Of a DNA stretch of 64,000 bases, positions 4,695-57,854 are shown piece after piece (within the stretch, counting starts at the first letter, position 1; each line of letters starts with the position of its first letter). The stretch lies in the IMG/VR virus record IMGVR_UViG_3300045988_138358, one strand, 5' to 3'. Under the pieces are notes generated by a model. The model made no database searches. It was not told where the DNA came from and worked only from the letters and a program-made list of their open reading frames with translations. The position numbers were made by a program, and so were the translations under genes. Source of the DNA: a virus. Lineage: Duplodnaviria; Heunggongvirae; Uroviricota; Caudoviricetes.

Positions 4695-7600
4695 TAATCC
4701 TCCAGCAGAGCATCCAGCGACGGGTCATTAATAGTTGTGCTCGCACGTGGTCGCGGCTGCGGCTGCGATGTTTTGACAACCTTATCTGGATCGCCTTTTG
4801 TATTATTTTTGTTCACATTCAGAAGGTCTTTCAGGATGGAACAGACGTTATCCAGCGCCTTCAACATAGCAGGATCGTTATTTGCAGTGTCAGTAGTTAA
4901 TGGTTGTCTTATTCCGCTTCGAGCAAGATCGGTTACAGTGGGAAGCTGTGGCGGCATAGCAAGAAAAGGTTCCTGCACGGCTGACGCAGTGCCAAATATG
5001 GCGTTATTTGCCTCAGTTGATATTCCTTTGATGCTATCGGCAGTTTGTTGAATGCCATTATTTAGCCAACCACCAGCACTTTTTGTAAGTGGGCTAATCG
5101 CCCTGGCGATTGTTGAATTCTGCCCTGTAGCCTGATAGACAAAATCATTTAATATGCCAGTGCCATCGATGCCACCAACAAGCTGTGAAACGTTATCACC
5201 AATTGCAGGTAATACAGCCGAACCAATGCGCTTTATGCCTGTTAATGACGAATCAAACAAAGAACCAAGAAATCCCTTATCTTCGCCGTCTATTACCTTA
5301 TTGCCATTGTCATAGACCGGAATCCCTTTTGAGTTTACAGGTGTTTTTTTATTCTCTGTTGGCTGTGCAGCGTCAGAGAGAAGATCGACCGAAGACATAT
5401 CGCGTTCAGGTGTCGGCCTTTTTTGTATAGCCTCCCTGATATCAGCTACCTGTGGTGCTTTTTTGAATCCAAAAGATTTTCCGGTTAAGCCGGATATTTT
5501 TTCAGTCAGAGCCTGATCCATTCCCTTCGCCTTTTCTGAAAGCGAAGATATAGAACCAAATGAAGTAGCCGACGCAAAATCCTTCACCAAGTCCAGACTT
5601 GTTCCAGCAAGACTGGTAGCCGCGCCGCCAAATAAATCACTTACTCCACTGATACCGCTTTCATTTATGGCGATTAACCGCTCAAGCAAACTCGATGGCG
5701 AGCCAGTATTAACATCAGCGTTCTCTGGAATAATCGGTTGTGGTCGGTTACCTGTTTTTTGTGGCTTTTTGGCTGCCTGGGCATGTTGTGCAACCTCAAT
5801 TGGCTTAGGTGTTGCTGTTGGGACTGCATTCAATACAGGTTGTGCCGGAGATGTACCATCAGCATATCTCACCTTGCGACCAACGCTATATTGCGAATCA
5901 CGAGCAATTAGCTGACCGCCATTCTCTTTCTGAATTTTATTAAGCCGCGCCAATGTTTCATCGGAGAAGCGCCCCTCCCAACGACCGGTATTTGCATTGA
6001 ACGCCCCAAGAGCATTCTTAATAAACTCATTATTAACCGCAGGGTTTCCGCCTTCTTTCGTCGCAATAGCACGAACTAATTGCGTCATAACCTCCGGGTT
6101 GCTGACATCTATTTTTTCATTAGGCGATACACCAAGATATTTACTGACGTTATCAATATATTGGTTAGTATTGTTCTCATTTGGCGGTGCCCATTTTGAA
6201 ATGATGCTGGATACTGTTTGCAGCTTCTGATACCCGGCGGCAGCACTTGTACCGTTGTAATAACTCGATACCTGGTTTGCCAATGCCCGAATCCCTTCTT
6301 CGGGCGTATTAAACCGCGCAAAACGCTGTTCGCCTTTCGCGTTCGGCGCTTCCAGTACCGCCCCCTCCTGATTTGCAAAAACCAGGTTCCCCAGGTTGTT
6401 ATTCCGGTAATTCCTGTTCTTGGCGTTGCTTCCGCCTATATTCAGATCAGCCGTTATTGTATTTTTTTCAGGCGCTTTAAATTCGTCTGGCGATTTGTAG
6501 CCGTGTTCACCCACGCCATCCTCACCACTGCGCCCGCCCTGTAGCTGTCGGGCCAGATCATTAATTGCGGCTACCGTTTGCTTGGTGCCATCTTCAACGG
6601 CTTTCTTAACCTGCGCAGTGCCTTCGCTGCTTGATGAGAACGATTCTTTTAGGCTGCTGAATACGTTTTTTGTCGTGTCTATAGAACTATTTATGCCACG
6701 AGCAATATCTCCAGTATCAAAATTCTGAAGTTTTTCACCAGCCCCCTCAAAGCCTAACGCAGAAATCCCTTTACCTATCAGGTTGGTTGCGCCAGAAACT
6801 AAGCCGCCCATATCAAGCACATTAGCTGTTGCGTAAGCCGATTTTTGCTGTCTGGACACAGCATCATCATCACTTAAGCCAAAAGCTGCCTTTTGCGCCT
6901 CTGTATCTGTGTAACCATCTATGGCGTCATATCCAGCCATTGCCAGCGAACCGATGATAGGGACCGCTCTTGCCGCTGTGGATGCTGCTGATTTAACACC
7001 TATTTTTGCTGCACTTTTGAGGGCTACAGATTCAGTTTTTTTCTTTGCAATGACTTCGCCGGTTTTAATGGTGGCATCTTCAGCCACAACACCAGCTGAC
7101 TTCACGGCCTTAGCAGTATTTTTTGTTTCCTTTGCAATCCCCTTTGATGTATCGCTGATAGTGCTTACATCTTTGGGTTTGCTGATCTTATTTTTAACTA
7201 CTTTTGCTGCTCCGACACCAGTGCCAGCCGCAGCGCTACCGGCAGCAACTTTTTCGCCAGCGGAGAGTGCTTTTTTCCCAAGATTGCGGCCTTTCCTTTT
7301 CGATTTGTTCCGTTTATTTTTTCCCGTCTGATCACCAATATTGATTTTATTTCTTCTGCTTGCTCGATTTTTCCAGAGATCACTTAAGCCGAACTTATTT
7401 CCAGAAGACACTGATTTCCGAAGCTTAACTATCTCGTCAGAAACATTTTCCAGACCATCAATTATTTTGTTGTCATTGGTCTGAAGGATTTTGGTTTGCT
7501 CTTCTACTGCTTGTGCGGATTTTGTCTCAACAGCGTTATTGAATGCTTTTGCAGATGTTGCTTTTTGAGAATTCACCGCCGCCGGATAAGTAATTACTGG

Positions 7601-29547: not shown

Positions 29548-29850
29548 ATGACCAAAAAAATTAACATAAAGGATTTCAGGGATGCGTGGCTTGATGATTT
29601 TTTTGAATTTTCAACACCACATAGAAAGATACCTCCTGATATTCATATGACATTGTCACGGAAGTTGGACATTATCAATGCCGCAACTACCTGTAAGGAT
29701 TTAAGATCACCACCAGGTAATCGGTATGAGGAACTGTCAGGGAAGCTAAATGGCTATTCATCAGTAAGGGTGAATAAGCAATATAGGTTAATTTTTAAGT
29801 GGGTTAACGGAAAGGCCGAGGACTTGTATCTCGACCCTCACAAATACTAA
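29548..29850 (+). CDS. higB: HigB-type killer toxin
   Basis: ORF track 100 aa; C-terminus matches the HigB/killer-protein family pattern as I recall it; toxin-first order. Confidence 0.7.
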   Translation: MTKKINIKDFRDAWLDDFFEFSTPHRKIPPDIHMTLSRKLDIINAATTCKDLRSPPGNRYEELSGKLNGYSSVRVNKQYRLIFKWVNGKAEDLYLDPHKY

Positions 29851-29920
29851 AACAGATACCCGGTTACGGACCGGGTTCTGACCAGAGTCCACTTAATACG
29901 CACGCTAGTAAGGGCAAAAA

Positions 29921-30259
29921 ATGAAACAGGCAACCAGAAAACCGACGACCGTAGGTGATATCCTTCTGTACGAATACCTGGAGCCGTTAGAGCTGAAGAT
30001 CAACGAGTTAGCAGAAATACTTCATGTTCATCGTAACACCGTAAGTGCTCTTGTTAATAATAATCGTAAGCTAACGATGGATATGGCATATCGCCTGGCA
30101 AAAGCATTCGATACTTCTGTAGATTTTTGGATTAATCTTCAGACCGCAGTAGATCTGTGGGAAGTCGAAAATGATATGCGCGTTCAGGAAGAGTTAAGTC
30201 GTATCAATACTGCTGAAAAATTTATTTCTCAGCGGAACCTGAATAAAAAAGCAGCCTGA
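29921..30259 (+). CDS. higA: HigA-type HTH antitoxin
   Basis: ORF track 112 aa; XRE-type HTH. Confidence 0.7.
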   Translation: MKQATRKPTTVGDILLYEYLEPLELKINELAEILHVHRNTVSALVNNNRKLTMDMAYRLAKAFDTSVDFWINLQTAVDLWEVENDMRVQEELSRINTAEKFISQRNLNKKAA

Positions 30260-36567: not shown

Positions 36568-36615
36568 GATGGCAGTCTCTTACTTTTCAACGATTTTTCT
36601 ATGATTGATCAAAAT

Positions 36616-36645
36616 TGTTAGATATTCAAAATTGATTTTCTAACA
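36616..36645. promoter_or_regulatory. operator-like inverted repeat TGTTAGA-N16-TCTAACA
   Basis: Between divergent ref and the 36688 operon. Confidence 0.55.
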
Positions 36646-36687
36646 CAAAATATTAATATCATTCCTGATAACTGTTTGGAGGACATG

Positions 36688-37463: not shown

Positions 37464-37777
37464 GCTGGCGGGGATGGGGAAGGGCAGAAATCATGATACT
37501 CCGCCAGTGCGCCGGAACTATGACGGTAGAGAGTATTGGGAAGCTGATCGGTCGTACCGGTGATGCCGTCAGGACTAAAGCGCGAGAGCTGGGGATCAGA
37601 ATGATTCTGAAAGGTGACTTTCACCAGTCAGCCAAATATCGGCAGAGCGATATAGAGCTGGCGCGGCAGCTTCATCAGTGCGGTGTTCCCCGCCGTGAGA
37701 TCGCAGAAAAACTCGAAATGCCCCTGGGCATGATTAATCAGTACGTTTATTTCGAAAGGAGAGTGCATGAAGTCTGA
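37460..37777 (+). CDS. putative HTH DNA-binding protein
   Basis: ORF track 105 aa. Confidence 0.35.
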   Translation: MSWRGWGRAEIMILRQCAGTMTVESIGKLIGRTGDAVRTKARELGIRMILKGDFHQSAKYRQSDIELARQLHQCGVPRREIAEKLEMPLGMINQYVYFERRVHEV

Positions 37778-38468
37778 AGGTTTAACGCCAGAGCAACTGG
37801 CGGAGATCGAGCTTTACTATCCGTTACGTGAACGTTATTCACCGAAACCAGCGCCTAAATGCCCTGTTTGTGGCGAGGAAATGTCAATGCAGCGCATATC
37901 TGGATCACATGTTGTTTATGCCTGTTCCGGCATGGAGGATGACGGATGCTTCAAAACTGGACGAACTTATGCTGACGAGCATTACAAAAATTCGCGCATA
38001 TCAGTAGTTGATGGTAGCGATCCTGATGTGATTGAACTGCTTGACGAGAAAGTGGAGATGGCCCTAACGCTTGAGAAGCTGCGTGTTGAGCTGGAGGCCG
38101 CTAAAAAGTGTATTGCAGAGCTGGAAAGCAATAGCGGGGCGCTGGTGGCGGAATGCCAAAACAAAAAAGCAGCACTTGAGGCAATTCTTAGCCATCTCCC
38201 AATTAATCATCCAGATATAGACATCGCATGCGTAGCGAACATAGCTCATAACGAGTTAGGTGAAGCGAAAAGCACTATATCTGAGGCTTATCTTGTAGAA
38301 ATACAGGCTCAGGGATTGGAGGCATTCGCTTTGACGATGCGCGATACCGGAGATGATCCATTTTTTGATTCCGTTGCTTCTGCTTGCGCGGATGCGGCCG
38401 ACAGGTTCGCAGCCCTGCTTCGTAAAGGACAATCCTGCCTGCGCCCGAACTTTGAAGGGGAAAGATGA
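37767..38468 (+). CDS. Ea22-like mosaic paralog
   Basis: ORF track 233 aa; shares the LRVELEA coiled-coil module with three downstream paralogs. Confidence 0.45.
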
Positions 38469-38791
38469 TGACCACATCTCATTCTGCAATTACCCAGGAA
38501 AAAGCCTTCCACATACTCGAACGATTAGAAACGCTCGCTACGGAGGAGAAGATATCCCCGGAGATGCTGGTCGAGTGCAGCCGTGTGATATTGCGTCGCA
38601 AGAACGACATCGCGCGGCTGACATCTGGCGCACCATCCGTATCAGCCAGTCCAACGCTTTATTGCAGCTTCTGCAACAAATCCCAGCACACCGTTAAAAA
38701 GTTAATTGCCGGGGACAACGCTTTCATCTGCAACGAGTGCGTGAAAGATTGCAACAACATTATCCAGGAAGAGCAAAGGGAATCAGCATGA
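38465..38791 (+). CDS. protein with C-terminal ClpX-type zinc-binding domain
   Basis: ORF track 108 aa; [39 protein letters not shown] is near-identical in pattern to the N-terminal zinc finger of E. coli ClpX as I recall it; no AAA+ module follows. Confidence 0.6.
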
Positions 38792-39504
38792 AATTTTCCA
38801 AATTTTCTGAGTTGGTGAATCGTATTTTGTCCGACAACCACAGCCATCGTCGCGATATGGATGTAACGATCGTTGTTCATTCGCCTGGTCGCATCGGTTC
38901 AACACCATCAGTTGAGGTTCAGTCAATTCAGGTGGGTTTTGATTGGGATGCCGGGAAAGTGCTGATTTTCCCAGCACAGCCACTGACCACGCTAACACCA
39001 GAACAGATTACTGATATCACGGATAGTGTGCGCAAAGGTCAGTCTTGGCACGCATATCAGGAATACAAGAAGCATAAAGAGCAGTTGGAAAAATTGTCGA
39101 TTGAACTGGATGCTGCAAGACGGCGCATTACAGAACTGGAGAGCGAACGCGCGGTGCTGGCGGCGGAGAATGCGGAGCTGAAGTCTGTGCACCCTCAACC
39201 ATTCGGAGCTGAGATGATGAAGGCTCTTGATGCGTATGAGAAGCATCAGGATGAAGTGCCAGAGACTGGAATGCTCAATGCATTTTTCATCTTGCGCGAC
39301 AGTATCTGTGTTGACACCCCAGCCACCGATGCTTTCCTGGCTGAAGTACGGGCGCAGGGGGTAGAGATGTACGCAGATAACCTCGACAACGGAGCAGACG
39401 ACGCAGAACGAGGTGGTTTTGATTATGCCGTTAAGTTTCTACGCAGTGAAGCGTCTAGTGTACGTTTGTTCGCCGACCAGCTTCGCAAAGGAGGCAGCCA
39501 GTGA
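38788..39504 (+). CDS. Ea22-like mosaic paralog
   Basis: ORF track 38737-39504; ATG at 38788 with AAGGGAA upstream. Confidence 0.45.
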
Positions 39505-41792: not shown

Positions 41793-42092
41793 ATGAGTCA
41801 AGGTAATGGTGACGGAGCTGCAAAGTGCAGAATCTCCACTTGTTTGATTAATGACAAAAAAATAGAACCGTGCGCGGCGTTGGCACAATCTCTGGAGCAG
41901 GATGCTGAATACACGACGCGGAAAGGTCTGCTGAAATACAAAATCTATAACCATGAATTAATTCATTCACAAGACCTGATCATGCTGCGATCAGGCGAGT
42001 TTTCTAAATCGCCGATTCGAATTTCATTTTGCCCGTTCTGTGGTGAAAGTCTGAAAACGCGGGAAGCGGAGGCAACCAGTGAGCAAAATTAA
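41793..42092 (+). CDS. small zinc-ribbon-like protein
   Basis: ORF track 99 aa; CPFCG motif. Confidence 0.3.
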   Translation: MSQGNGDGAAKCRISTCLINDKKIEPCAALAQSLEQDAEYTTRKGLLKYKIYNHELIHSQDLIMLRSGEFSKSPIRISFCPFCGESLKTREAEATSEQN

Positions 42093-42696
42093 CTATCAAG
42101 AACTGCGCGAGGCGGCGGAACAGGCAACGCAAGATGAATGGGTAGCATATATTTTGCCGGGTCATAACGGCATTTATCCTGCGCGCACATCTGAGGGTAG
42201 GCATTGCGGATACTTTATTGACTGGCCTGGCATTGATGGACAAAGGAATGCTGGTGCTAATGCCCGTTATATCGCTGCTATCCCACCAAAAGTTGCGTTG
42301 TCACTACTGGATGAAATTAAACGTCAGGAGGACTCAAATATTGATGCTATGTGCCGTATTGCAGAGCTTGAAACTAATATCGCGGCGCTGGTGGCAGAGA
42401 ACGCCGGACTGAAACACGCAATGGCCGTAACTCTTGAGCATGTGTCGGTAACGGATGCAGGGCAGGCCGGAGTTGCTGCGATGATTATTAATGATGCCCT
42501 GCACCACAGCGAAACGCCAGCTACCGACGCTTTCATGGCGGAAGTGCGGGCGCAGGGGGTGGATATGGCTCGTAACGCGATGATTGATTTTGTTGATGGT
42601 GAAGTTGGGCCAAACAAGAACGTTCCGGGTCTGATTAGAGGCGCAGAGATATGCGTAAGTATTGCTGAACAGCTTCGCAAAGGAGGCAACCAGTGA
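42079..42696 (+). CDS. Ea22-like mosaic paralog
   Basis: ORF track 205 aa; N-terminal INYQELREAAE and C-terminal ATDAFMAEVRAQG..QLRKGGNQ modules shared with paralogs. Confidence 0.45.
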   Translation: MSKINYQELREAAEQATQDEWVAYILPGHNGIYPARTSEGRHCGYFIDWPGIDGQRNAGANARYIAAIPPKVALSLLDEIKRQEDSNIDAMCRIAELETNIAALVAENAGLKHAMAVTLEHVSVTDAGQAGVAAMIINDALHHSETPATDAFMAEVRAQGVDMARNAMIDFVDGEVGPNKNVPGLIRGAEICVSIAEQLRKGGNQ

Positions 42697-43178
42697 GCGA
42701 AATTAATTACCAGGCACTGCGTGAGGCGGCGGAACGTGCAACTCCAGCAATGGAACGCCTGTTAATGTTGCCAGCTGATGATGATTTGTTAAGTGAACAG
42801 GAACTTAAAGATTACGGTGTGGATATTGATGCGCTCAACGCCTTCAAATTTCTGATCGGACCAGAAACCGTGCTGGCGCTGCTGGATGAACGGGAAAGAA
42901 ACCAGCAATACATAAAACGCCGCGATCAGGAGAACGAGGATATTGCGCTAACGGTAGGGAAGCTGCGCGTTGAGCTTGAGGCAGAAAAACAGCGGGCAAA
43001 GGATCTGTTTATGGAAAATGCTCGGCTTAAGTCAGGTATAGCCGGTCTGATACACCTCGGTATTCGATATGCGGATGTTGAGGTCATGAAAATTGCTGGA
43101 GATGCCCAGCTTTCTACCCCATGCACTGACAGCATCATAAACAGCATTGCAACAGGCATTCGCATCGAAGGAGAGTGA
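42693..43178 (+). CDS. Ea22-like mosaic paralog
   Basis: ORF track 161 aa. Confidence 0.4.
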   Translation: MSEINYQALREAAERATPAMERLLMLPADDDLLSEQELKDYGVDIDALNAFKFLIGPETVLALLDERERNQQYIKRRDQENEDIALTVGKLRVELEAEKQRAKDLFMENARLKSGIAGLIHLGIRYADVEVMKIAGDAQLSTPCTDSIINSIATGIRIEGE

Positions 43179-46464: not shown

Positions 46465-46716
46465 ATGAGCGACTGGAATATTGCAGCTAAAAGTCAGGAA
46501 GAACGGGATAAGGTTAACGTTGATCTGGCTGCCAGCGGTGTGGCGTACAAAGAGCGATTGAACATACCTGTCATAGCTGAACAGGTAGCCCGCGAGCAAC
46601 CAGAGAATCTGCGCACCTATTTCATGGAACGGCTACGGCACTACCGGCAGTTAAGCCTCCAGTTGCCAAAAGGGAGCGATCCGGTGTATCAGAACGAGGA
46701 TGCACCAAAAAAATAG
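46465..46716 (+). CDS. hypothetical protein
   Basis: ORF track 83 aa. Confidence 0.3.
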
Positions 46717-46839: not shown

Positions 46840-47229
46840 ATGGGCTTCCCTTCTCCTGCGGCGGATTATGCAGAGAGCCGCATTTCTCTTGATCAGCAAC
46901 TAATCAGACATCCTTCCGCGACCTACTTCATGCGGGCGGCAGACAGCCATCACCGTGAGGGAATATTGCAAGGTGCTTTGCTGGTGGTTGATTCCTCACT
47001 TACTCCGGTTGATGGTTCACTGCTTATATGCGCTATGGAGGGTGAATATCGCATAAAGAGATACAGGAAGTATCCGCGCCAGCACCTGGAGGATTTAAGC
47101 ACCGGGAAGAAAGAGGCGTTACCAGTAGATGACGATGGATACACGGGCAGTAATGCTGTTTTTGGTGTGATCACTCATGTCATCAATGATGCCCGAAGTG
47201 GGGAGTTTGATTATAGACCTGTGATTTAA
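46840..47229 (+). CDS. humD: HumD-like, pre-truncated UmuD' homolog
   Basis: ORF track 129 aa; begins MGFPSPAADY, i.e. at the position of the UmuD self-cleavage site as I recall it. Confidence 0.65.
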   Translation: MGFPSPAADYAESRISLDQQLIRHPSATYFMRAADSHHREGILQGALLVVDSSLTPVDGSLLICAMEGEYRIKRYRKYPRQHLEDLSTGKKEALPVDDDGYTGSNAVFGVITHVINDARSGEFDYRPVI

Positions 47230-47274: not shown

Positions 47275-48369
47275 TCATTCAATGATTTTTTCGGCTGTCA
47301 GCCAGCTAATTTCGTGCCTGTCTTTCGGCGGTTTTAGCATGTGAGCATATTCAGCGACATGCTCCCACGGAATTGTTTTTGCCCACTCAACGATAGCATT
47401 GTGATCTGCAGTGAAGAGTGGAATAGTGTGCGATTTCAACCATTCTAATGTCGTGACGCCATGTTTTTTGGCGTGGTGCTGCGCATGATGCCGGGCTATC
47501 ACTCGTAATGGCATTGTCCATTCACTACCATCAGGCATCGAAAAGCGCATTGTCTTCGGCATATCTGATTCAAGAACAGCCTCCCTAATACCAGGGAACT
47601 CACCAAGAATCATACGACGATAGTCATCACTATTTCGCCCGCCATACCTTTCGGCAAAATGATCAAGATATTCTTGGGTAATAAATGGTGAATCCTCCGC
47701 ACTCAGCTTAATGGCTTTATATACACCACTCGGATTATCTTCAGCTAAAGCACGTCCATGATGTGAATCATAAAAAAAGCCTATTTCCTCTGGTGACGGA
47801 ATTGAAGTGAGCAATATGCGTGAATCACCACTAGTCATGCTTGCCCACACAATGCTGTATGCCCGATCGCTGATATGTGCGGAATCCACAATAATGAATA
47901 AAAGATGGTCGGCGTAGTGACCTGCAATGCTATCTTCATAGTTAAGGCGGTAGTTACAAAAGCACATTCCCCAAAATTCATTGAACATCAGACCGCTATC
48001 ACCGACCTTAAAATACTCAATGATAAAAGGTTGTTTTTTCAGCAATGCCTCCCAACATTGCCACACATATGCAACAATTCCTCTTTTGCAAACATTTGAT
48101 TTTGGATAAACAATTACTGTCCGGGAATCAGGATACATAATCGTATAAAGGGTACTAATAACAGCAAGCACTTGCGGTCGTCCGATCCCATACGGAGTGG
48201 TGACAGTAGCTTTTGCATTATTGGGCTGTATAGCTTCAACAATTTGTTGTTGCTGGTGGCTTAAATCAATATCAAACAATTCTTTTGCTGCCAGTACCCA
48301 ATTGTCTTTATATTTCTCCACCAGCGACAGCCAGCGCGGATCTTTATAAATATTGCTCTTAGTCGCCAT
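47275..48369 (-). CDS. terminase large-subunit ATPase-domain paralog with degenerate Walker A and B, no nuclease domain
   Basis: ORF track 47275-48660; likelier start ATG 48369. Aligns by eye with the PacB-like protein at 53517-55025, but GHGTGKS is PYGIGRP and LDEAS is VDSAH. Confidence 0.6.
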   Translation of the reverse strand: MATKSNIYKDPRWLSLVEKYKDNWVLAAKELFDIDLSHQQQQIVEAIQPNNAKATVTTPYGIGRPQVLAVISTLYTIMYPDSRTVIVYPKSNVCKRGIVAYVWQCWEALLKKQPFIIEYFKVGDSGLMFNEFWGMCFCNYRLNYEDSIAGHYADHLLFIIVDSAHISDRAYSIVWASMTSGDSRILLTSIPSPEEIGFFYDSHHGRALAEDNPSGVYKAIKLSAEDSPFITQEYLDHFAERYGGRNSDDYRRMILGEFPGIREAVLESDMPKTMRFSMPDGSEWTMPLRVIARHHAQHHAKKHGVTTLEWLKSHTIPLFTADHNAIVEWAKTIPWEHVAEYAHMLKPPKDRHEISWLTAEKIIE

Positions 48370-49126
48370 CTGCCACTTCCTTAACTTCTTCTTTGGCCTG
48401 TTCTGCAATCGCCGCACGGCATTTCGCCCTGGCCGTAGCGATTGCTTCAGCACGCACATCATCAGGAATCGTTGACGTGATATACATATCCAGTTCTTCG
48501 GCGCGGAACACTGTTTGGTCCAGATATTCGCGTAGCATCCAGGTAAATTCGAAATCACACGCGATAATCTCTGCGCTACCTTCTGCACCATTTGGGAAAT
48601 GAATAAAAGCCTGTTTAGCCAAACCGATAACACGACATGCGGTTGCCAAAACAGCGGCAACCAGGTTTACATTTTCACACGCTACGGGCTGATTAACGCC
48701 GGAGATTACTCCATTTAACTGTCGGTTATATGGAAGGTAGTTTGAGATGCGTTCTACGCGCCATGTGCCAGTCAGGCTGCCATTCTTAAAGATAATTGGT
48801 GTAACGGATAGCCCAAGCTCGCGTATAAGTCGTTGCGCTATAGCAGGATCATTAAACATGTCTAATGCTACACATTCGAAAGACTGTGCAAGGGTAAACA
48901 GTTCTTCCAGAGAGTAGTCTTTGCCCCTGGCGGTGATGTAACGATGAACGCCGCTTTCTGCATCACTCCATATAGCTACGCCATGCTCTTCATTCAGCTC
49001 TTCATTAAAGCCGAGATACGTCATGATAGTACGTTCAATCGTGTCAAACGGCAGTGACATGTCGGCGTTAACAGCCACCAGCAGGCCATTACGCAAGCGG
49101 TATTGAATTGCTTTAGTATTTTCCAC
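48359..49126 (-). CDS. hypothetical protein
   Basis: ORF track 255 aa; overlaps the downstream gene start. Confidence 0.35.
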   Translation of the reverse strand: MENTKAIQYRLRNGLLVAVNADMSLPFDTIERTIMTYLGFNEELNEEHGVAIWSDAESGVHRYITARGKDYSLEELFTLAQSFECVALDMFNDPAIAQRLIRELGLSVTPIIFKNGSLTGTWRVERISNYLPYNRQLNGVISGVNQPVACENVNLVAAVLATACRVIGLAKQAFIHFPNGAEGSAEIIACDFEFTWMLREYLDQTVFRAEELDMYITSTIPDDVRAEAIATARAKCRAAIAEQAKEEVKEVADGD

Positions 49127-56886: not shown

Positions 56887-57279
56887 CTACCAGCGAGATA
56901 AGCGAACGACGTGTTTTACCTTAGCGATCCACTTACCACGTGAGTTATTAATTACGGCCTGCGCCACCTTTAAGCTGACTTCAAAATCAGCCTTACGACC
57001 ATCAGAATCCACCAGCGTTGCACCGTCTATTTCCGGCAGGCTTAAATAATCCTGTTCTACCTCTAATGGCATTGACGGCTCTCTGAATGGTGTCAATTGC
57101 CGAGCTTTCCAGATAAAGCGAACTCTCAATCCCCTATAAGCCATTACCATGTAGCCTGTTATCGTGCTCTTATGGCCTGCATCAGTACGCGCAGCATTAC
57201 ACGATACAATCTTACAGGTGACGATATTCCACTCCACGTTGGAGACTTCGTGAATGCTTAATTTTGTTGTCTCGTACAT
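56887..57279 (-). CDS. hypothetical protein
   Basis: ORF track 130 aa. Confidence 0.3.
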   Translation of the reverse strand: MYETTKLSIHEVSNVEWNIVTCKIVSCNAARTDAGHKSTITGYMVMAYRGLRVRFIWKARQLTPFREPSMPLEVEQDYLSLPEIDGATLVDSDGRKADFEVSLKVAQAVINNSRGKWIAKVKHVVRLSRW

Positions 57280-57854
57280 CAGAATGCCTCCCAGTCAGTT
57301 GCGATAATATCCACGCCAGTTGCGAACCAGTCTGTCTGCGCCTGTAAATCCCCATTCATCATTACCAGGCGAGGCATAACCATCACATCGCACCCTTCCA
57401 CAATATCGAATGCCTCTTCCGGCAAGAATTCGAAGAGCTTTTCTTTGCTGCCAATGCTGCCACGGAACATCGATAAATAGCTCCCTTTAGGCCATGATGC
57501 CCGGCGGGCATCCAGCCCCTTCATCATCCAGAACATGGCGGCAGAAAAATTGATGTTCTTTTTGGCGATGAAAACATTATTGGCTTCTGTTTGCTTCAGA
57601 AACTTAATTAGCCTTGCCATCGACTCGGATAACGCTACGTATGGCTCATGATTGGCTGCGGACACGCTCACACCATGTAATCCAACACTGACTACCGTCA
57701 TATCGCCGCTTTGAGCGGTTTCAATGTTGACACCTTTGCGAACTAACGAGGCATAAAGTTCCTCTCGCTTTTGTGTCCAGCGTTCCCGCTGACCGATGAA
57801 GTCACTCAATATGAGGTCTGCTTCTGCATACGCGTTATCGTTCGCCGTTAACAT
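57279..57854 (-). CDS. fusion protein with C-terminal DUF2829-like (Tad2-like) domain, more divergent
   Basis: ORF track 191 aa; C-terminal half (AAMFWMMKGLDARRASWPKG .. PRLVMMNGDLQAQTDWFATGVDIIATDWEAF) follows the same pattern. Confidence 0.4.
   Translation of the reverse strand: MLTANDNAYAEADLILSDFIGQRERWTQKREELYASLVRKGVNIETAQSGDMTVVSVGLHGVSVSAANHEPYVALSESMARLIKFLKQTEANNVFIAKKNINFSAAMFWMMKGLDARRASWPKGSYLSMFRGSIGSKEKLFEFLPEEAFDIVEGCDVMVMPRLVMMNGDLQAQTDWFATGVDIIATDWEAF

Follow-up and report, generated by a model that had tools for sequence, protein, structure and literature searches.

The ClpXP protease controls many proteins that matter to temperate phages, including lambda O, MuA, P1 Phd, fragments of LexA and UmuD, sigma-S (via RssB) and subunits of type I restriction enzymes. 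Known phage counter-measures target Lon, FtsH or ClpP, and none is known to us that employs a copied substrate-docking domain of the protease itself. Among the phage-encoded inhibitors described so far, T4 PinA and T7 gp4.5 act on Lon and lambda RexB acts on ClpP, while P1 Phd is a known ClpXP substrate (PMC10286901). On the zinc-binding domain (ZBD) of ClpX, residues F16 and I46 form a hydrophobic docking patch, and SspB and RssB bind the same region of the domain (PMC7804408, Houry laboratory). CsfB, an anti-sigma factor of B. subtilis, is a dimeric treble-clef protein ~20% identical to the ClpX ZBD, for which its authors doubt both common ancestry and shared partners with that domain (PMC5890618). 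Here, we describe a stand-alone ClpX-ZBD protein encoded at 38465-38791 (+) of the IMG/VR virus record IMGVR_UViG_3300045988_138358 (64,000 nucleotides; this whole analysed stretch is called the window), a D6-like phage-plasmid of the P1 group. The protein joins a family-specific helical hairpin to a C-terminal ClpX-type ZBD, and we tentatively read it as a mimic of the ClpX N-domain.

Compared with PinA, gp4.5, RexB and the FtsH-directed lambda CIII, the window protein would likewise be a small early or accessory phage protein that blunts a host protease and stabilises phage proteins or antitoxins; however, it shares no sequence relation with them, none of them copies a domain of the protease, and we only infer inhibition by the window protein. 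CsfB offers a different likeness, that of a small stand-alone dimeric treble-clef zinc protein acting through protein binding, features which are those of CsfB. The two part ways in their relation to the ClpX ZBD: identity is only ~20% for CsfB, but homology is unmistakable for the window protein. We found no paper in the literature on stand-alone ClpX ZBDs of phages.

The ClpX-type C4 ZBD occupies residues 65-103 (38657-38773, +), as placed by Pfam, PDB matches, Foldseek and identity to ClpX. Residues 66-102 match PF06689 (zf-C4_ClpX) over profile positions 2-39 of 39, scoring 63.3 bits (E=1.8e-17) where the gathering cut-off is 27, and among PDB sequences the E. coli ClpX ZBD (entries 1ovx and 2ds5) matches best (E ~1e-15). 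An AlphaFold2 model built from 22 family sequences (mean predicted local distance difference test score, pLDDT, 78.7) contains helices at residues 11-27 and 32-53, an unstructured linker (54-64), and a zinc ribbon with a C-terminal helix (65-107). Foldseek superposed the predicted model on 2ds5, 2ds6, 2ds8 and 1ovx over 39 columns, the root-mean-square deviation being 1.9-2.5 Å (~2.1), with 67% identity and a probability of 1.00, and the modelled treble-clef fold agrees with that of the solved ClpX ZBD. The zinc ligands lie in two knuckles located by alignment, CSFC at 38663-38674 (+; C67, codon 38663-38665; F69; C70, codon 38672-38674) and CNEC at 38729-38740 (+; C89, codon 38729-38731; C92, codon 38738-38740). 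C67, C70, C89 and C92 align with C15, C18, C37 and C40 of ClpX, and none of the four varies among 23 family members or in other phage ZBDs. No AAA+ module was detected with the ClpX equivalog models NF003745 and TIGR00382, which score 46.4 and 41.8 bits, far short of their cut-offs (359 and 371), and align only over model positions 5-50; the protein ends 5 residues past the ZBD helix. A preliminary description of this DNA had proposed an open reading frame (ORF) with a terminal ClpX-type C4 zinc domain and no AAA+ module after it. Both proposals are borne out by the profile match, the PDB matches, the superposition, the low equivalog scores and the early end of the chain. Careful alignment retains all four zinc-ligand cysteines, and the ORF with its terminal ZBD is confirmed as real, far beyond chance.

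What the phage protein shares with the ClpX ZBD is the C4 treble-clef fold, the four zinc cysteines, a fifth cysteine in the ZBD helix, and the residues corresponding to F16 and I46, at 68% identity over 40 residues. What sets it apart is that the domain is C-terminal in the phage protein, with neither linker nor AAA+ ring after it and with an unrelated helical hairpin before it. The preliminary description had further called the domain almost a copy of the ClpX ZBD, of which the homology holds (it is the same domain) but the near-copy does not. Against K-12 ClpX residues 12-51, identity is 68% for amino acids (27/40), 62% for nucleotides and 47% at third codon positions. P88-type relatives reach 78% protein identity with 38% at third codon positions, and phage ZBDs overall range over 68-78% and 38-50%, respectively. 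When the gene was searched by blastn against 5,426 complete E. coli genomes, 195 genomes (3.6%) were found to carry a member, and the match was never to clpX. Together, the nucleotide identity, the third-position identity and the blastn result rule out a recent copy of host clpX. Because amino acid identity is high despite largely randomised synonymous sites and no blastn link exists, the domain therefore appears to have been captured long ago and then held ClpX-like by selection. Retained ClpX identity at randomised synonymous sites is also how a mimic that needs the ClpX binding surfaces would be expected to look.

The residues involved in docking were compared on the basis of PMC7804408 and PMC5890618, with the ClpX numbering of F16 and I46 as in the literature. 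The F16/I46 patch is the docking place of lambda O, SspB, RssB and trigger factor. The counterpart of F16, F69, does not vary in any family member or in any of the phage ZBDs examined. The counterpart of I46, I99, is I or V in most members, with one L variant and one G variant. The K(K/R)LIAG strand is also preserved in the window protein. In the clade to which the window protein belongs (clade a), the ZBD departs from ClpX at G19N, P32D-S33N, Y35F, D42K-L43D and D46N.

The 66-amino-acid region before the ZBD had been described as unique, a label that has to be withdrawn: it is a conserved, family-specific domain. This helical hairpin (38486-38626, +; residues ~8-54, with helices 11-27 and 32-53 from the AlphaFold2 secondary structure and the alignment) has 26 invariant columns within the close family. 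Its ratio of non-synonymous to synonymous substitution rates (dN/dS) is about 0.2-0.4; the hairpin is under purifying selection, which within the close clade is stronger on it than on the ZBD. The window protein fits the hairpin motif EKA..(I/L)ER(L/M)E.LA.EE ... (E)C....LRR..D...L.SG, which is followed by a linker and the C-terminal ZBD. Searched against 1.84 billion representative proteins, a profile of the hairpin by itself recovered only ZBD fusions, truncated fragments, and low-complexity or coiled-coil noise. The hairpin had no match in Pfam, PHROG (by remote homology) or NCBIfam, the best match of its profile among PDB sequences had an E of 0.33, and Foldseek against PDB and BFVD matched only the ZBD portion of the model, with no structural relative of the hairpin. 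Between the two domains lies a Ser/Ala/Pro-rich linker of low model confidence (38627-38656, +; residues ~55-64), for which AlphaFold2 gave no secondary structure and a pLDDT that drops to 62 in the block 51-60; its length and sequence differ between clades. The C-terminus, EEQRESA, is likewise variable across the family.

The family had already been catalogued. The window protein is a full-length member of PHROG 6797 (E=8.3e-56, residues 2-107 on profile positions 1-106 of 107; function unassigned), from whose members WP_021551796.1, D6 orf93 and P88 gp19 it has no material difference, and the RefSeq homologue WP_021551796.1 is already named "ClpX C4-type zinc finger protein". It is 84-99% identical to copies in D6-like plasmids and ~49% identical to the P88 clade. 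Members of clade a are carried by phage-plasmids of Escherichia, Salmonella and Shigella, both D6-like (~90 kb) and SSU5-like (~107-120 kb), and by some chromosomal prophages. Members of clade b (~49% identical) occur in P88/P2-like prophages, where the gene lies after the gpA replication endonuclease gene (plus ParM/ParR), at the end of the early operon and just before the portal gene. A scan of IMG/VR yielded 210 relatives, adding distant clades with both hairpin and ZBD (L080/L081 and L083). In several chimeric members (P0001, P0003, P0008 and P0015, and L021-L023 from IMG/VR), the first ~20 residues come from the beginning of an Ead/Ea22-like gene, joined in frame at ITQEKAF, which we take as evidence of recombination or deletion in these accessory operons. 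In GenBank and RefSeq, D6 orf93 (NC_050154.1 78777-79097) and P88 gp19 (NC_026014.1 10195-10527) bear the misname "carboxylate--amine ligase", which has spread to many records. That name was rejected, as no ligase domain (GCS2 or ATP-grasp) was found in Pfam or NCBIfam and the 108-amino-acid hairpin and ZBD are too small.

ClpX-type ZBDs without an AAA+ module also recur in other phages, in early or replication-adjacent regions. Pseudomonas phage phi1 encodes a 65-amino-acid ZBD protein (named 'ClpX') between replication protein P and NinG, gp170 of Caulobacter phage Cr30 is a very short ORF with a ClpX-type ZBD, the 'Clp protease' of PP9W2 is another stand-alone ZBD protein, and PHROGs 12435, 5259 and 20296 also match the ZBD portion of the window protein. 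The phi1, PP9W2 and Cr30 proteins differ from the window protein in that they lack the hairpin, being bare ZBDs or bearing other short N- or C-terminal extensions, and in that they belong to other hosts. IMG/VR contigs encode further proteins of 81-303 amino acids whose N-terminal parts vary; every one of them ends in a ZBD, with PF06689 scores of 60-66 bits. While the ZBD is N-terminal in ClpX, it is always C-terminal in the fused phage proteins. The window protein is one of many phage proteins that combine some N-terminal module with a C-terminal ZBD. At the long end of the range, the ORF containing positions 3093-3221 of contig L086 (IMGVR_UViG_3300047160_015042) encodes 303 amino acids with a C-terminal ZBD of 65.9 bits; its long N-terminal region looks ParB-like by eye, which Pfam did not confirm. 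L085, L091 and L092 are further short proteins with other N-terminal helices and a ZBD.

Across these genomes, the ZBD gene has no fixed neighbour. Clustering of the flanking genes over 83 contexts found no neighbour family common to the clades, and one 159-amino-acid ORF with no PHROG match was present in only 7 of them. The ZBD gene is a self-contained unit, and its target is therefore probably a host constant such as ClpX. Its position is that of an early or accessory operon gene, after ref in D6-like elements and after gpA in P88/P2-like phages, and we infer early timing from this position.

The best explanation that we can offer, put forward tentatively, is that the protein is a mimic of the ClpX N-domain that would compete for N-domain-dependent adaptors and substrates. 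The ideas of the preliminary description, that the protein might act as a decoy or heterodimerise with ClpX N-domains, remain the leading hypotheses, the decoy being the simplest form of the mimic. The mimic reading is supported because the ZBD with its zinc ligands and docking pocket is kept, no AAA+ module is present, the gene sits in an early-operon context without partners, and such proteins recur in unrelated phages. Under this mechanism, the phage ZBD would fold and dimerise like the ClpX ZBD and offer ligands the same hydrophobic pocket. As a free cytoplasmic protein, it would vie with the hexamer's three ZBD dimers for whatever must dock there: adaptors (SspB, RssB, UmuD) through their XB-type tails, and substrates of the lambda O or MuA type that depend on the N-domain. 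The isolated ZBD is said, from work by Wojtyra and colleagues in 2003 and Thibault and colleagues in 2006, to bind lambda O and SspB and to compete in trans. The N-domain-dependent branch of ClpXP would thereby be selectively damped, while direct recognition at the pore, as for ssrA-type tags, would be spared. What the hairpin adds beyond a bare ZBD would most simply be extra self-association (avidity) or a second contact with the partner. For a temperate phage or phage-plasmid, the gain would be that ClpXP-labile phage or host proteins are stabilised during early lytic growth or establishment, with replication proteins, antitoxins whose loss triggers abortive infection, and proteins of the UmuD'/HumD type as candidates.

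Several observations weigh against the N-domain mimic. The hairpin is better conserved than the ZBD in the close clade, yet a bare ZBD would suffice as a decoy. The ZBD binds peptides with only micromolar affinity, which means that a decoy would have to be highly expressed. The phd/doc pair of a sister plasmid is absent from the window, so that client is not general. Clade a changes P32-S33 (to D-N) and L43 (to D) in the ZBD, which could alter dimerisation or ligand choice. Moreover, the ZBDs of the window and D6 differ by 10.5 non-synonymous versus 2.5 synonymous differences, a dN/dS of ~1 on tiny counts, which suggests that part of the ZBD surface may be free, or pushed, to change in clade a.

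The conserved hairpin is the weak point of a decoy, and three rival explanations therefore stay alive. The phage ZBD could pair with the ZBD of ClpX, either in newly made ClpX or through dimer exchange, and so place the hairpin on the hexamer as a trans-acting N-domain or adaptor; N-domain function would then be poisoned, or a new client bound by the hairpin would be recruited for degradation or remodelling. We consider this rather unlikely, although it would account for the retention of almost the whole small domain (including the hydrophobic I29, I36, V41 and C44), for the diverse N-terminal modules attached to a near-constant ZBD, as if the ZBD docks and the module binds cargo, and for the purifying selection on the hairpin, and the ClpX ZBD is known to homodimerise via its helices and hairpins. 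Against such pairing, the ClpX ZBD dimer is very stable, with all six N-domains of the hexamer already paired; clade a has D, A or V for the helix residue L43 of ClpX, which may disfavour a canonical heterodimer; and no candidate cargo is co-encoded. A broader reading, which we judge improbable, is that capture of the ClpX N-domain happened repeatedly in phages of several bacterial phyla, with the domain always joined C-terminally to different small modules, giving trans-acting N-domains that reprogramme ClpXP rather than merely blocking it. Such proteins could heterodimerise with or replace the ClpX ZBD and deliver host defence or regulatory proteins for destruction, or they could block the ClpXP-dependent turnover of antitoxins and so disarm abortive-infection systems; the hairpin family of the window would then be the enterobacterial representative.

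It is also conceivable, but in our view unlikely, that the ZBD serves only as a compact zinc-stabilised dimeriser and that the hairpin is the effector, perhaps a small regulator or an anti-factor comparable to CsfB, with a target unrelated to ClpX. The ClpX ZBD is a constitutive dimerisation domain, CsfB acts as an anti-sigma factor with the same dimeric fold, the ZBD is appended to many different N-terminal modules, and the clade a hairpin is more conserved than the ZBD, all of which would fit. However, dimerisation does not require 68-78% identity to ClpX, F16/I46 pocket included, and CsfB keeps the fold at ~20%; this reading is disfavoured because the ligand pocket stays ClpX-like despite synonymous saturation. 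Nor does the hairpin occur on its own or have detectable relatives beyond ZBD fusions. Finally, the protein could protect a single client in the manner of the Ira anti-adaptors, its ZBD capturing the degron or XB-like motif of RssB (stabilising sigma-S), of UmuD/HumD or of Phd, and its hairpin giving specificity. In its favour, a humD-like S24 peptidase is encoded at 46840-47226 of the window and also in an SSU5-like plasmid, phd/doc is present in the sister plasmid and adjoins the ZBD gene in one P88-like prophage, and Phd is a ClpXP substrate (PMC10286901). No ClpXP-connected gene, however, is consistently linked to the ZBD gene, and this very unlikely explanation is a special case of the N-domain mimic from which it is computationally inseparable. 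Phd/Doc as a dedicated client was rejected, the pair being found in the sister plasmid and the one P88-like prophage and missing from the window. In that prophage (L008, chromosome of E. coli R1), the Phd/YefM-Doc pair occupies a variable cargo slot at 5320-6071, directly downstream of the ZBD gene and encoded on the opposite strand; the arrangement is suggestive, given that Phd of P1 is degraded by ClpXP, but was seen in this one context only.

Two other candidate functions were tried and rejected. An antitoxin or defence component is contradicted by a PHROG 4681 match of E=0.076 in which no stretch passes alone, by Ead/Ea22-like flanking genes that are not toxins, and by PADLOC, which reported nothing. 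An SspB-type adaptor does not fit either, as the protein has no LRVVK-like XB tail (its C-terminus being EEQRESA) and no SspB domain in Pfam.

The coding sequence at 38465-38791 (+), supported by the ORF list and by the Pfam, PHROG and PDB matches, specifies 108 amino acids and ends in TGA at 38789-38791. Translation from the second ATG, at 38468, would give a 107-amino-acid product, and this is the likelier start because relatives begin MTTSHSA and the Shine-Dalgarno-like AAGGGG at 38455-38460 (+; read from the sequence, with a presumed role) lies 7 nucleotides before it, compared with 4 nucleotides before the ATG at 38465. The ATGATG at 38465-38470 (+) overlaps the TGA (38466-38468) of the upstream gene at 37767-38468 (+), which matches Pfam Ead_Ea22 (E=5.8e-10). 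At the other end, the stop overlaps the next start in an ATGA at 38788-38791 (+), where the downstream gene at 38788-39504 (+) begins; its 238-amino-acid product belongs to PHROG 368/6026 and has an Ea22-like C-terminus. These overlaps on both sides (ATGATGA and ATGA) bear the signature of what is probably a translationally coupled operon. Several Ead/Ea22-like paralogues surround the ZBD gene (37767-38468, 38788-39504 and 42079-43178, all +). The product of 37767-38468 has an N-terminal CPVC...YAC zinc-ribbon-like motif, and the C-terminal domains encoded by the two flanking genes resemble each other (…AQG(L/V)E…LRKG…).

The ZBD gene belongs to a long accessory operon on the + strand, beginning opposite ref and running in the order DUF4406, small DNA-binding protein, Ead/Ea22-like, ZBD gene, Ea22-like (PHROG 368), DUF4752, others, metallophosphoesterase (ppp) and DUF968 (pdcB). 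The P1 C1-operator consensus is absent anywhere in the window, and a sigma-70 consensus scan called no + strand promoter. The intergenic region between ref (-) and the accessory operon (+), at 36600-36665, holds a GATC site and, seen by eye only, a TTGATT...TAATAT pair (about 36630-36660), a possible operon promoter.

Elsewhere in the window, a HigB/HigA toxin-antitoxin pair is encoded at 29548-30256 (+), both proteins being 100% identical to those of the sister plasmid. A homologue of the Pol III theta subunit (HOT; 46465-46713, +) is 100% identical to the sister plasmid copy, and HumD, a UmuD'-like S24 peptidase (46840-47226, +), is 97% identical to its copy there. Where the sister plasmid has phd/doc after humD, the window has two overlapping ORFs of 461 and 255 amino acids on the opposite strand (47275-49126, -). 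Neither has a Pfam or PADLOC match, and they may be swapped cargo or a defence gene. Further on, a 191-amino-acid ORF (57279-57854, -) carries a C-terminal Tad2-like (Thoeris anti-defence 2) domain (PF11195, E=1.5e-9), and in the sister plasmid it is annotated as a Tad2 family protein.

The domain call in public annotation and the catalogued family were already known. What the above analyses add is the two-domain anatomy of the protein, a hairpin that is exclusive to ZBD fusions, the evidence for ancient capture and for selection for ClpX-likeness, the retained docking pocket, the early-operon and partner-free context, and the recurrence of C-terminal ZBD fusions across phages. Its predicted features would place this family among phage modulators of host proteases, where it most likely interferes with which proteins ClpXP may degrade. 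If the protein does compete with or dock on the ClpX N-domain, it would provide a selective, genetically encoded tool for separating N-domain-dependent from pore-dependent ClpXP proteolysis, and it would represent a new class of proteins for host takeover or anti-defence, one with members in ~3.6% of complete E. coli genomes and with other forms in phages of Pseudomonas and Caulobacter.

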